Below are positions 3,001 to 23,995 of a DNA stretch of 23,995 bases, piece after piece (position 1 is the stretch's first letter; each line of letters begins with the position of its first letter). The position numbers were made by a program. This stretch comes from a virus. Its lineage: Duplodnaviria; Heunggongvirae; Uroviricota; Caudoviricetes. The DNA is taken from the IMG/VR virus record IMGVR_UViG_2534681697_000018, positions 1 to 23,995 of that record. One strand, given 5' to 3'.

Positions 3001-6000
3001 GGCGATAGCAGCAGGGTTAAGGCGTCCAGCAAGCTGGATTTACCCCACGCGTTCTCCCCAATCAGGACGTTGTTTTGTTCCAGCATCAACGACAAACGGT
3101 TGATACCGCGAAAACCCACAATTTCAACGCGCTCAAGAATCATATCCCCTCCAGAAATATGTGACTTATCCTTTACGCTGGCAGTATAACGGGAAAGGCC
3201 TTGCTAATACGTGATGACATCACATTTAAGCATGGCAAATGTCTGAAAAATGAGCGAATAATCGCGTTATACTCCCTCTTGCTGATAAGCCCGCAAAAAC
3301 AACAAAATCAAATAATTAGCATGATAAATTATTTTTTATTACGCCTAAAGGATTAAATCTTTTGCTTGCACTACACTGTCAATCAGACAAATGACTATAT
3401 GGGGCAACCCGCTGTTGCCCTAAATCAAATTTACTGGATTTATTTATCTGGTGAATGACTCGCCTTCGTTTTTAAAATAGCCGCGCATTATTTCCGTCGT
3501 CATTTTTTTACGACGACCCTATAAAACGACCATATTTTTCACAGGGTCAATTTTTAATTGAGGTGGATATGTTCAGAAAATTAGCAGCTGAATGTTTTGG
3601 TACTTTCTGGCTTGTTTTTGGTGGTCATTTTAACCCGGCGGTCACTATTGGTTTATGGGCTGGCGGACGTTTCCCGGCAAAAGAATTCGTTGGCTACGTA
3701 ATTGCCCAAGTTGTCGGCGGTATTGTTGCAGCGGCGCTGCTGTATTTAATTGCCAGTGGTAAAACGGGTTTTGACGCGGCAGCCAGCGGTTTTGCTTCTA
3801 ACGGTTATGGCGAGCATTCACCAGGCGGTTATTCCATGCTTTCCGCGCTGGTAGTTGAACTGGTATTGAGTGCGGGCTTCCTGTTAGTGATCCACGGTGC
3901 AACCGACAAATACGCTCCGGCAGGTTTTGCGCCGATCGCTATTGGTCTGGCCTTAACCCTGATTCACTTAATCAGTATTCCGGTGACTAACACTTCTGTT
4001 AACCCGGCGCGCAGCACCGCGGTTGCTATCTTCCAGGGCGGCTGGGCATTAGAACAACTGTGGTTCTTCTGGGTGGTGCCAATTGTCGGCGGCATTATCG
4101 GTGGTCTGATTTACCGGACCCTGCTGGAAAAGCGTGATTAATTAGCATTGGCATTTTATCTGCCCTGGTTGTTTTATCTTCGACATTACAAACCGCACGG
4201 GTATTGGTGGCGTCAAAATCGCTGAAGCGTTCCCCGAAGGCCGGGGCAGCCCACATGGATGTGGGCTGAGGGCGCGTCTTACAGGACGTTACCTCGCGCC
4301 CGACCCGGTTGCCGAAGGGGATAAGCTGAAGGTACCGCGCAGCGGCGATTTTGTTCGCCAGAGCCCGGGGGTGCAGGGCTGAGGAATCCCCAGAAAACGA
4401 GACAGACATAGCATTATGTGATCTACTGATTTGTGCCAACAATTCAATGAGATCACTGCTATGCCTGTTCATAAAGTATGTCAGAATTTCTTCCGGGATG
4501 CCTTAGCACCATTTCATCAGTACCGACAAAATGCCCTGATGGATGCCACAGTGGCGTTAATCAACGGAGCATCTCTGACGCTGACCAGTATCGGACGTTT
4601 TTTGCCGGGTAATGCACAAGTTAAGAATAAGATCAAACGTATTGATCGCCTCATGGGTAATGAGGCGCTCCATCGCGATATTCCAATGATTTTCAGGAAT
4701 ATCACTTCAATGCTGACACGGCAGTTATCTTTATGTGTAATAGCCGTAGACTGGAGTGGCTATCCCTCCCAGGAGCATCATGTTCTTCGTGCCAGCCTTC
4801 TGTGTGACGGGCGTTCCATTCCGTTATTGAGTAAGGTTGTTCCTTCTGAAAAACAAAATAATCCATTGATACAACATGATTTCCTTGATTCCCTTGCTCA
4901 ATCCCTGCCCCCCGATGCCAGGGTTATTATTGTCACGGATGCTGGATTTCAGAGCGCATGGTTTCACCATATTACTTCTCTGGGCTGGGATTTTATTGGT
5001 CGGATCAGAAATAACGTTCAGTATTGCCTCGATAACGCGCCTGAAAGATGGTTAAAAGTGTCGGATAGCCCTGAATGTAAAACACCGGAATATATGGGGG
5101 CTGGAAGGCTGGTTAAAGAAAGGAAAAAAAGCATCCGGGGGCATTTTTACACCTATAAGAAATCGGCAAAAGGGCGAAAAAAGAAACGTTCGAAAGGTCA
5201 GAGTGGTTTAAACAAAACAGACAAAGAACAGAGCAAATCAGCAAAAGAAGCCTGGTTGATCTTCAGCAGTACAAATGACTTCAGAGCGCGAGAAATCATC
5301 AAGTTATACAGTCGGCGAATGCAGATTGAGCAAAACTTTCGTGATGAAAAGAACGGGCGCTTCGGATTTGGTCTTCGGGCCAGCAAAAGTCGTTCAACAG
5401 GAAGAATTCTGGTTCTGAGTCTGCTGGCAACGTTGAGCACTATCGTAATGTGGTTACTCGGTTATCACGCTGAAAATAAAGGGTTACACCTGAAATATCA
5501 GGCTAACAGCATTAAATCCCGGCGGGTTATCTCATATCTGACGTTAGCGAAGAATGTTCTTCGACACTCGCCACTTATTTTAAGACGAACAGTACTGAGC
5601 ACAGTTCTAAACCATCTGTCCAGAACCTACCGAAATATGGTGCTGGTTTATTAGCAGTAATTTTGTGGGGATCCCTCAGCCCTGAGGGGGCTCCCGGAAA
5701 CGTCCCACGGTGCGAGCTGCATCTTAAATCAGGTGTGGTAAAACTGTTTGACCCTCTCACTCCGGAACTGTTACGGGCGCTAATCCGCGAAATGAAAGGG
5801 GGTATCCGATGATAACGCTGCCGACCGGTACCAAAATCTGGATCATCGCTGGCATCACAGATATGCGTTGTGGCTTCAATGGCCTGGCTTCGAAGGTGCA
5901 GAACACGCTGAAAGATGACCCGTTCTCCGGGCATATCTTCGTCTTCCGGGGCCGCAGTGGCAAAATGGTGAAAATACTGTGGGCCGATCGTGACGGGTTA

Positions 6001-21000: not shown

Positions 21001-23995
21001 GGCATTTGATGGCACCAGAGATATCACCATCAGCAGCACCGATTCTGGTGCAGTACGTGATTTCAGATACACCAGCGAAGTGTTTCACAATCCCGGTGGT
21101 AACGAAATTTCCTGGGTATTCCGCGCGCCTTCAGGGTGTATTTTGTCAGGTATTAACGTTCAGGAAACTGGCAAAAGCTCTGCGGATAACATCGGGGGTG
21201 TGTATTACAAACAAACTCAGATTTATATCAATGGCGGATGGCGCACGGTATCCGGCTAATTAAGGAGAAAATAATGGAACTCAGAAACGTCACGCGTTAT
21301 TACCCGGAAGAAATGCCTTATGGTGAAAACATTCAGTATTTCCGCAGTGAAGACGGACAGGATTTTTATGAATCACTGGATAAATTCACGAAGAAATACA
21401 AATTATGTATTCACCCGGAAACCGGCGTGATTTATTCAATGGCAGAAGACGTGTCCCGTCTTTATCCTGTTGGTTTTACCATTGTGGAAGTGGATGAGCT
21501 GCCGGAGGGTTTTGACATCGAAGCCAGCTGGTATTACCGGGATGGCGAAGTACTGCCAGTTCCTGTTGATTATTCGAAACTGGCAGAAAAGCAACGTCAG
21601 CGCTTGCTGAATGAAGCAAAGGAAATCACTTCCGACTGGAAAACCAAGCTGGAGCTGGGCACCATCAGCGACGATGACAAAGTCCGTCTTACGCAGTGGA
21701 TGGAATATATCAAAGCGGTGAAGGTGCTGGATTTAAGCACTGCTACCGATGAAATCTCCTTTGATGCCATCAACTGGCCGGAGCGTCCCGATGCCGCAGC
21801 TTAAAGGTGTGATTAAAACGCCCACGGGAGAACCGCTGGGCGGCGCAACAATTACACTGACCTCCCTGCACAACCGTGCAGGGATTCTGAAAGGCGTTTT
21901 CAGCCACGTCACCACACAGAGCGGGGAGTATGACTTCCCCGTTCTGCCGGGCGTGTACAGCGTTCGCCTGACACAGAGCGCACAACGCCTTTCAGAAATC
22001 GGTGTCATTCGCGTTTATGAAGATTCAGCGGACGGTTCGCTGAATGATTTTCTGGGCGCAACTGATATTGACCTGTGTCCGGAATCCCTGAAGAAATTCG
22101 AAGAGCTGGCGCAACAGGCGCAGCAGAGTGCCGGGGCCGCAGCCGGAAACGCACAGCAGACGGCGCAGGATGTGGCGGCAGCCGCAGCCGGACAGAGCGC
22201 ACAGGATGCCGCAGGTTATGCCCGCGCAGCAGAACAGGCCAAAAATGACATTGATGCTGCGCTGACCGGCACTCTGAAAATGGCTAACCATCTGTCAGAA
22301 ATCGCAGCAGCAGGCGAAAAGGCACAACAGAAGTCCCGGGATAATCTGAGGCTGAAAAGTGCGGCCACGATGGAAGCACAGAGCGACATTTACGACCGGA
22401 CAAAAGGCCGTCTGGCGATACCCGGCGCATTCGGCTTTGGGTGTGCTTTTCTGCCTGAAGATGTTATCCGTTTTGACACTAAGAGTGATTTCCTGGCCTG
22501 GGTAAGGAATGCGCTGCCAGGTGAATATTCCGTTGCTGGCCCCTACGGCATCATCATACCCGACACACGGTTTGAAGGGGGGCTCAGCATCCGGTGGACT
22601 GATGCACGCCCTGAGACAAGGGAACCGCGGTACAGAGCCAAATCCCTTACTTTTTACGGCATTAACGGCCCCATTTATCACACCCGCTACTGCTACTGGC
22701 CCATATCCAGACTGACTGGGTGAAAATAAATATAGCCACAGAAGATATTATTTACAGAATCGTGGCGAGCTCTGTCCGCAACAGATGGGGAGACCCTGAC
22801 ATTGGCGGGCTGATTATTGCTGCGTACCAGGGAAAAGCTGACGGTGATAAAGACATCAGACTTGTCAGGGGGCGGTCATACAGAGGCTCACGACTGGGAC
22901 CGGTGGGGATTTCAGCGCCCTGTACTCCCACCGGAACGCATATAGTATACCCACAATATTTCATTACGGGATGTTCAGAGCATTCATTACCGGGGTCATA
23001 TTGCGCCCTGTCCGGGGTGCCGGATACATATGTCTCTGGCGCAATGCCCGGGCTTTTTATTCGCACATCGTGAGGAATGCACTGTGGAAATTAAAAAAAT
23101 CATTAATCCCCGTTATACCGAAAGTGGCGCAGTAGACTGTGACGTTTTTTTTGACGACAGGGACCAGGCAGTCCCCTACACAGCCACCGCTGATGATGTC
23201 GCTTCGACGGGTCAGCAAATCTGGCAGGAACTGCAAAGCGGCAAATGGGGTGAGATAGCCCCATTCACTGTGACACCAGAAATGCTGGAAGCGGCCAGAG
23301 AGGCCAGACGTCAGGGAATTGAAGCATGGCGCACAGAACAGGAGGCGAAGCCGTTCACGTTTGAATGGAACGGTCGTATCTGGAATGCTGGCCCCAACTC
23401 ACTGGGCCGCCTTTATCCGGTGGTAATGGCTGCGAAATCGTAAGCGCCCCGAGAAGTACGTAGCGTAAGGATTATTTTACAGACGAGAAGTTCCAGGGCA
23501 GCAGTTCATGCACTTGGTTCGACGGCCAGTCATTGAGCTTCTCGATCACTTCGCGCAACCAGTCCTCCGGCTCCACTTCGTTCTGTTTGCAGGTGACCAG
23601 CAGACTGTAGATGATCGCCGCACTTTCTCCTCCCTTGTCTGAGCCGAAAAAGAGATAATTTTTTCTTCCAACCGCCACCGATCGTAACGCGTTTTCACCG
23701 ATGTTGTTGTCTATTTCCACCCAGCCGTCACGACAGAACTCGTTCAGCGCATTCCAGTGATTCAGGATATAGTCGAACGCCTTCGCCATCTCCGCATGTT
23801 TCGACAGCGTTTCCCTCTGCAACTGTATCCAGTCGTACAACGACTGCATCAACTGGACGCTTCTGGCTTTTCTGACTGCAAGCCGTTCCTCTGCCGGACT
23901 GCCACGTATCTCCGCTTCTATGTCGTATAACTCTGCTATCCGTCTGAGCGCTTCCTGAGTCATTTCTGTCGGACGGCGCACATCCTCGTCATGGA

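Follow-up and report, generated by a model that had tools for sequence, protein, structure and literature searches.

The subject of this analysis is a 23,995-nt stretch of viral DNA (IMG/VR record IMGVR_UViG_2534681697_000018; "the window" refers throughout to this whole stretch), in which two inverted copies of ISSfl3, an insertion sequence (IS) of the IS66 family, bracket the tail genes of a Mu-like prophage. Look-up of a tail-fibre protein identified the window as the entire draft contig AERN01000091.1 (23,995 bp) of assembly GCA_000193915.2, which belongs to Shigella boydii ATCC 9905 according to a published strain table. From left to right, it leads from the end of an IS4 through chromosomal backbone, an ISSfl1 and a truncated ISSfl3 into the tail genes, which carry an IS600, and it closes in the second ISSfl3 (Table 1). 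Four different IS elements in five copies are thus found within 24 kb. The contig begins and ends in multi-copy repeats, and three internal IS elements are read through. Since it ends inside a multi-copy IS, the right ISSfl3 is cut by the assembly and not by biology.

A repeat search returned a single long inverted pair in the window, 7254–7809 and 23440–23995, with arms of 556 nt and a spacer of 15630 nt. When compared base by base, the arms differ at two positions, namely at 7426 (A/G), where CAA and CAG both encode Q417, and at 7436 (A/G), where the change from AAA to GAA leads to K421E in TnpC. One of these two positions is also polymorphic among orthologous ISSfl3 copies. Both arms close with the shared terminus ...GGGGCGCTTAC, which annotated copies in Escherichia coli genomes identify as the right end of ISSfl3, and these ends point inward at the intervening DNA. 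The arms are 99.6–99.9% identical to annotated ISSfl3 and end at the same terminal nucleotide. The inverted homology of the pair amounts to at least 556 nt with two mismatches (99.6% identity) and to at most 2130 nt, and the arms are hence of the length, several hundred base pairs or more, at which inverted repeats can support homologous inversion. The original prediction, made from the sequence alone, had described two inverted IS66 copies around a phage tail segment, the left one starting at 5680, with inward-facing right ends that each truncate a phage gene and an overlap differing at only one synonymous and one K/E position. The ISSfl3 arms and their junctions agree with this description in all points, the truncated genes being a small open reading frame (ORF), of which a stub remains at 7810, and a DUF4376 gene stopped by the IS terminus.

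The left copy is 99.9% identical over 5680–7809 to copies annotated as ISSfl3 in E. coli genomes. Its TnpC matches NF033517 transpos_IS66 (E = 1.6e-139, model positions 3–386 of 387) and its TnpB matches NF033819 IS66_TnpB (E = 5.5e-37). The complete ISSfl3 of FDAARGOS_943 is 2754 bp long, starts with GTAAGCGCCCC, ends with GGGGCGCTTAC and is flanked by the 8-bp target duplication TGAGCAGC. The left copy begins at element position 625, i.e. the first 624 bp with the left terminal repeat and most of tnpA are gone, and ISSfl1 is found in their place. A complete element with both terminal repeats (GTAAGCGCCCC... on the left) and tnpA is therefore not seen in the window, the right copy being assembled for 556 bp only. 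The left flank of ISSfl1, GGTGCAGGG, is aqpZ-lysO intergenic DNA and its right flank, CCCTGAGGG, belongs to the inside of ISSfl3; the two flanks are unrelated, and a 9-bp target duplication is absent around the ISSfl1 of the window. At its other end, the left ISSfl3 cuts the first 5 nt (ATGAG) from the small ORF downstream of the major head gene.

To place these junctions, we compared the window with CP026875.1, CP026824.1 and CP026836.1, three complete Shigella-project chromosomes found by look-up of the gp36-like protein, the last of them from S. boydii. The junction between ISSfl3 and the phage lies at the identical nucleotide in the window and in all three chromosomes, and the outer flank of the orthologous ISSfl3 differs in each of the three. 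In CP026836.1, host DNA of a type VI secretion system (T6SS) locus gives way to 5 bp of the Mu-like left end; beyond an IS630-like insertion, the left end continues for about 200 bp up to ISSfl3 (L008 5577–6947; L numbers designate compared sequences here and below). In CP026875.1, the same host T6SS DNA is directly fused to the ISSfl3 left end. In CP026824.1, the flank is the unrelated ygcG-eno region, with the 5′ end of ygcG adjoining ISSfl3 (L011 6236–7048 and 6988). The same ISSfl3 has hence been re-joined to another locus in this strain, which is a direct precedent for recombination at this element. None of the three relatives shows an 8-bp duplication at the left ISSfl3 (CGTGAGAA, CTCTAAAT or GTTTAAGC versus TGAAAAAG). 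The host flanks of the CP026875.1 remnant are contiguous in the unoccupied E. coli T6SS locus and share the four bases AGAA; similarly, the flanks of an intact Mu-like relative in sslE share TGTT. The left junction was not found in species-representative genomes, and the Shigella genomes carrying it lie outside this collection. Comparison of these sequences supports the view that the left ISSfl3 is an old scar, common to a Shigella clade, of the event in which a prophage in the T6SS locus lost its half with the early and head genes. The right copy plays no part in this deletion. Of the mechanistic readings given by the original prediction, that of a deletion scar is thus retained for the left copy only.

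The fusion in CP026875.1 (L015 5621–5643; L003 14456–14480; cf. L018 8215–8240) lies exactly where base 1 of the Mu-like phage should begin. An origin of this exact fusion by microhomology or slippage was rejected because the predicted junction sequences mismatch the observed one. The idea that ISSfl3 ends stood in for Mu ends, or Mu ends for those of ISSfl3, was rejected too, since the resulting flanking duplication would not fit in length or in sequence. That a transposase guided the trimming of the prophage end, in place of a random deletion, either through end-targeting by the IS66 family or through a Mu-type transposase acting in trans from sibling prophages and nicking the left end, appears quite improbable to us; if it did occur, the IS pair of the window would represent a step in a directed breakdown of the prophage.

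The Mu-like prophages of this group have an exact flanking repeat of only 4 bp (TGTT in sslE, AGAA in the T6SS locus) versus the 5 bp of Mu, and a fifth duplicated base would require a mismatch at both sites. Its termini are of the form TA...TA, with TATGGAGAGG... on the left and ...GCGCGCTTTA on the right (L001 24860–24880, L019 ~10190–10215, L020 290–305, L003 14465–14475). The right ends differ between otherwise collinear prophages: STEC346 has the canonical Mu-type ...CGTGCGCCGCTTCA, and FDAARGOS_943 and CP026875.1 have ...GCGCGCTTTA. The sub-terminal repeat motifs of the latter two differ as well (GTATCAAAT and ATCTTGAA; L002 28620–28690, L001 24810–24871, L003 14400–14469).

A further observation concerns ISSfl1, which is found at the same nucleotide of the ISSfl3 tnpA in the window (4379–5688) and in CP026875.1 (L015 6257–7574). 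This nucleotide sits in an imperfect 19-bp palindrome, GAGCGCCCTGAGGGGGCTC. In CP026875.1, ISSfl1 is flanked by the 9-bp duplication CCCTGAGGG and turns its left end toward tnpB. In the window it is flipped, with the right end toward tnpB and aqpZ-lysO DNA as the other flank. A flip in place by homologous recombination was rejected, since the junctions between IS ends and flanks differ and crossovers inside the IS cannot yield this outcome. The opposite orientation at one and the same nucleotide rather points to a second insertion into a hot spot or to a transposase-mediated rearrangement.

The segment between the two ISSfl3 copies spans the phage genome from the small ORF downstream of the major head gene through the DUF4376 gene, which in intact Mu-like relatives is directly followed by com and mom. 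It encodes a gp36-like protein, tail completion, sheath, tube, tape-measure and DNA-circularisation proteins, the baseplate proteins equivalent to gp44–48, a tail fibre, a fibre assembly protein, a second fibre and the DUF4376 stub. The order of the families follows the Mu late region: Phage_Mu_Gp36, Phage_tail_S, sheath, tube, Gp41_Mu, DNA_circ_N, GpP-like, Phage_Mu_Gp45, GP46, Baseplate_J and Phage_Mu_Gp48. Early, lysis, head and com/mom genes are absent from the window, as are the transposase A/B, the repressor and the phage ends of a complete Mu-like prophage, which the intact relative has.

The remaining tail genes are damaged. In the window, IS600 interrupts the DUF2635 gene, the second fibre gene is split when compared with a 468-aa homologue, and the DUF4376 gene is truncated. 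The IS600 insertion is common to CP026875.1 (L003, L015) and absent from CP026836.1 and CP026824.1, which makes it usable as a lineage marker. Both of these latter chromosomes have split or shortened versions of the sheath, tape-measure, baseplate and further genes, a state that speaks against selection acting on them. A domesticated tailocin was considered and rejected, given the fragmented tail genes in CP026836.1 and CP026824.1, the damage in the window and the absence of regulators and lysis genes from it. The state of the tail module hence looks like neutral decay and not like domestication. A Gin-type invertible fibre segment was rejected as well: there is no invertase, all fibre genes lie on the + strand, and the minus-strand ORFs in 18.7–23.1 kb have no Pfam match. 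The combination of serine invertase, crossover sites and fibre genes on opposite strands that characterises programmed tail-fibre inversion of the Mu G or P1 C type is accordingly not present.

The right junction presents a different picture from the left one. It halts the DUF4376 gene at codon 137 of about 206, with a stop codon provided by the ISSfl3 end, and Pfam DUF4376 matches the stub over model positions 1–41 of 106 only. The closest relative, CP026875.1, is 99.8% identical to the window over 13.2 kb and has the IS600 and the ISSfl1 site in common with it; it is empty at the right site and runs uninterrupted into DUF4376, mom and the T6SS genes. In an exact look-up, the 119-aa product specific to the junction was returned from this contig only in the collection, and the 137-aa stub had no exact match. 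Scans of complete E. coli genomes, of species representatives and of viral contigs gave no instance of the junction, and no comparable stub is present among 1332 DUF4376 homologues. The comparison with related genomes that the original prediction had proposed for the ISSfl3–segment–ISSfl3 unit likewise found it at no other site. For a simple insertion of the right copy, the expected 8-bp duplication is GCGAAATC. The far flank lies outside the contig, and the predicted far junction, GATGGGGCGCTTAC+GCGAAATC, was not found in viral contigs. A protein search with the T6SS fragment adjoining the Mu-like right end of CP026875.1 gave no identical representative, and S. boydii DUF4376 proteins that were looked up belonged to other strains. 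The distribution of the junctions shows that they differ in age, the left one being common to four genomes and the right one occurring in this strain only. The left relic was not the donor of the right copy, since it has no left end and no tnpA and differs from it at two positions.

The differences between the window and CP026875.1 are unevenly distributed, with 3 in 11.5 kb, followed by 10 in 21814–21940 and 12 in 23048–23434. The first cluster consists of ten substitutions in 127 bp where the second fibre gene begins and looks like a gene-conversion patch. It is real, since all ten substitutions are also present in an independent Illumina (short-read) assembly (L005), of which one contig is 100% identical to the window over 14503–22484 and breaks at 22484. 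Toward the right copy, the window follows the haplotype of the Mu remnant to 23083 and that of a prophage adjacent to the sit operon from 23204 on, which places the switch between 23084 and 23203. The last 339 bp before the right copy (23101–23439) are 100% identical to the DUF4376 paralogue of this sit-operon-adjacent, non-Mu prophage. The haplotype at the right junction is compatible with gene conversion, either preceding or following a simple insertion, with a true crossover and with an assembly chimera.

The cassette of phage_tail_N gene and DUF4376 in which the switch lies occurs in three contexts at 93–100% identity: in the Mu-like remnant, in the sitDCBA-adjacent non-Mu prophage of several Shigella, and in a remnant of enteroinvasive E. 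coli directly upstream of ipaHe (window 22200–23439; L023/L024 4800–6618; L017 1622–3608). Its presence in three contexts makes the cassette a multi-copy recombination substrate of its own.

Table 1. Features of the 23,995-nt window and the evidence for each
Feature	Position	Strand	Evidence and remarks
IS4 end, terminal 108 bp	1–108		100% match to the ends of annotated E. coli IS4; interrupts macA
Chromosomal backbone: 5′ part of macA, ybjX, ybjD, aqpZ, part of the aqpZ-lysO intergenic region	109–4378		99% identical to E. coli chromosomes
ISSfl1 (IS4 family, 1301 bp; transposase 4431–5654)	4379–5679	+	99.9% identical to annotated ISSfl1; NCBIfam IS4-family transposase match
Left ISSfl3, 5′-truncated, 2130/2754 bp	5680–7809	+	tnpA 3′ end, tnpB 5809–6156, tnpC 6176–7777 (533 aa), right terminal repeat
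Stub of the small ORF downstream of the Mu-like major head gene	7810–8116	+	Alignment to the intact prophages L001 and L002
Mu-like late (tail) region	7810–23439	+	Collinear with intact Mu-like prophages at 94–98% identity; Pfam names of called genes
IS600 (1264 bp)	9774–11037	-	Simple insertion with 3-bp duplication CTC at 9771–9773 and 11038–11040; interrupts DUF2635 gene
Tail-fibre cassette: 3′ part of phage_tail_N gene and DUF4376	22200–23439	+	Repeated in other Shigella prophages; per-100-bp identities and variable-site table
Truncated DUF4376 (tail-fibre-assembly-like) gene	23030–23443	+	137 of ~206 codons; TAA stop inside the ISSfl3 end
Right ISSfl3: right terminal repeat and last 556 bp (tnpC 3′ end)	23440–23995	-	Cut by the contig end

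At the left edge of the window, chromosomal homology begins only at 106–109. The backbone at 109–4378 falls into two pieces when aligned to E. coli, and its length is about 120 bp below that of the corresponding stretch of the best hit, which indicates an indel somewhere between macA and aqpZ.

From these comparisons, a stepwise history of the region emerges. They show that a Mu-like phage integrated in the type VI secretion locus of an ancestor. They also show that an ISSfl3 became located directly behind the major head gene, with the loss of everything from about 210 bp past the phage left end to this point. The outcome was an ISSfl3 without 8-bp duplication and an ISSfl3–tail junction that was inherited by at least four Shigella genomes. 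This loss may have occurred by an IS-promoted adjacent deletion or by recombination between two direct ISSfl3 copies. In the lineage common with CP026875.1, IS600 entered the DUF2635 gene and ISSfl1 the tnpA of ISSfl3. In ATCC 9905, ISSfl1 now links the relic ISSfl3 to aqpZ-lysO, and a further rearrangement has hence removed the ISSfl3 left end. The last step is documented by its junction, at which the exact right terminus of a second ISSfl3 adjoins the DUF4376 gene; this second ISSfl3 presumably stems from another genomic copy.

We estimate at roughly 70% the probability that the region is, as its sequence suggests, a decaying Mu-like prophage remnant that was hit by several IS at different times and has no function of its own, and that the inverted ISSfl3 pair around the tail genes of this dead prophage is ordinary Shigella genome decay and neither a functional nor a mobile unit. 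The pair is a passive by-product. Its inverted arrangement needs no special explanation, because random orientation makes half of all neighbouring copies of the same IS inverted. Three points weigh against so simple an account. The 339 bp before the right copy carry the paralogue haplotype, with 12 differences from the CP026875.1 orthologue, and the right junction may therefore not be a simple insertion. The opposite orientation of ISSfl1 cannot arise by homologous recombination alone, and the left side must therefore have had a more complex history than this account gives it. Finally, a single consensus contig cannot reveal a minority population with the inverted segment; the assembled orientation is the ancestral one.

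This last point concerns RecA-dependent inversion of the 15.6-kb segment by homologous recombination, which is possible in principle. The inverted homology of the two copies, 99.6% identical, may extend over as much as 2.13 kb, and in the relatives this ISSfl3 recombined with further copies, giving rise to their different outer flanks. The orientation of the segment relative to the left copy is nevertheless the same as in CP026875.1, CP026836.1 and CP026824.1, which have no right copy; no inversion is hence fixed in the assembly, and comparison of the consensus contig with these three genomes reveals neither both orientations nor exchanged flanks. Moreover, the segment has no invertase gene, no alternative fibre genes in opposite orientation and no expression context that an inversion could switch. 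It also lacks regulators, lysis and head genes, and there is no sign that an inversion took place or would have consequences. We thus consider it very improbable that the segment flips actively or that recombination between the copies has inverted it in the past. A composite transposon, which the original prediction had also envisaged and in which the two ISSfl3 copies would mobilise the tail segment as cargo, deserves hardly any credence at all. Two copies of one IS do flank a discrete segment, and tnpB and tnpC of the left copy are intact, but without its left terminal repeat and tnpA this copy has no outer end to mobilise, and two right ends facing inward delimit the rest of the chromosome and not the segment. 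In addition, one junction is present in four genomes and the other is unique, so that they differ in age, and the unit was found nowhere else among the E. coli complete genomes, species representatives, viral contigs and 1332 homologues. Neither functional outer ends nor an IS–cargo–IS unit with target duplication at other sites was thus observed.

Other alternatives concern the right junction alone. The haplotype switch at 23084–23203 could reflect a real reciprocal crossover between the cassette of the Mu remnant and an ISSfl3-carrying cassette next to the sit operon, by which the two loci were fused through a large inversion or deletion. In this case, the DNA past the right copy would be the sit locus and not com-mom and the T6SS genes. 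The allele found after the switch always precedes sitDCBA in other Shigella, large rearrangements mediated by IS or other repeats are common in this genus, and the loci to which the left side of the remnant was re-joined vary between strains. The same data are, however, explained by a short gene-conversion tract without any chromosomal rearrangement, a second conversion-like patch is present at 21814–21940 of the same cassette and common to another assembly, and no sit-adjacent copy was found with an ISSfl3 at this site. We regard such a crossover as unlikely, though by no means far-fetched. An assembly chimera, in which the right ISSfl3 really resides in the DUF4376 gene of the sit-adjacent prophage and the contig crossed over inside the repeated tail-fibre cassette, would produce the same clean switch to a haplotype 100% identical to the sit-adjacent one. 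The segment would then not be enclosed by two IS copies in the actual genome. The contig is a draft bounded by repeats at both ends, 22200–23439 is 93–100% identical to its paralogues, and the break of the independent short-read contig at 22484 marks the cassette as a repeat that is hard for assemblers. Upstream of the switch, on the other hand, about 30 discriminating sites show one haplotype without mixing, so that a collapse of the copies did not take place. Had there been a competing Mu-type branch, an overlap assembler should have halted at a fork around 23.1–23.4 kb; the contig instead runs 556 bp, about a read-length, into the IS, as is usual where unique sequence borders on a repeat. 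IS600, ISSfl1 and 2.1 kb of ISSfl3 were moreover read correctly, with junctions confirmed by CP026875.1. A chimera is accordingly rather improbable, while still carrying some weight. If the right copy instead arose by simple insertion accompanied by gene conversion, its far flank would read ...GGGGCGCTTAC / GCGAAATC, and beyond it one would expect the DUF4376 end of the Mu type, then com and mom, the boundary ...GCGCGCTTTA / AGAACTATC and finally the T6SS genes.

We further compared the region to already characterised systems. ISSfl3 is an element of the organisation tnpA-tnpB-tnpC with ends 5′-GTAAGCGCCCC and an 8-bp duplication; the arms of the window resemble it in their 99.6–99.9% identity, in the same end and in full-length IS66 TnpB and TnpC matches. 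Unlike the full element, the left copy is a relic without left end or tnpA, the right copy is assembled for 556 bp, and a target duplication can be demonstrated for neither. The intact Mu-like prophages of FDAARGOS_943 and STEC346 share with the window the order from gp36 to gp48 and the fibre genes, the Pfam families and 94–98% DNA identity. Compared with them, the window holds only the tail half and has no repressor, transposase A/B, Mor, lysis, terminase, portal, capsid or com/mom genes and no ends; compared with Mu itself, it is a remnant without the Gin-invertible G segment. Tn10 and Tn5 likewise consist of two inverted copies of one IS around a segment, from which the window differs in the missing outer end, the different ages of its junctions, the lack of a duplication flanking the unit and the lack of a second location. 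The closest parallel is the IS-mediated decay of prophages in Shigella (PMC7373316; Yang et al. 2005 as cited there), with interrupted genes, an IS-flanked deletion and re-joined flanks, from which the window differs in nothing of substance. Shigella chromosomes carry 229–348 IS, by which genes are interrupted and, through events between copies, DNA is deleted or rearranged (PMC7373316). ISSfl3 and ISSfl1 belong to the minor elements and not to the five expanded IS analysed by Hawkey et al. 2020 (PMC7373316). The feature in the window is hence of an already known kind, an ordinary product of IS expansion in Shigella, and its right edge is a question of assembly or recombination.

Beyond bookkeeping, the importance of this finding is small. 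For annotation, it means that the tail genes found here are a remnant unable to make phage, and that the right-hand junction is to be treated with caution. More generally, an inverted IS pair in a draft contig is not to be read as a transposon or a switch. The region provides a well-resolved example of the stepwise dismantling of a transposable prophage by IS elements in Shigella, and its junctions of different ages can serve as lineage markers.

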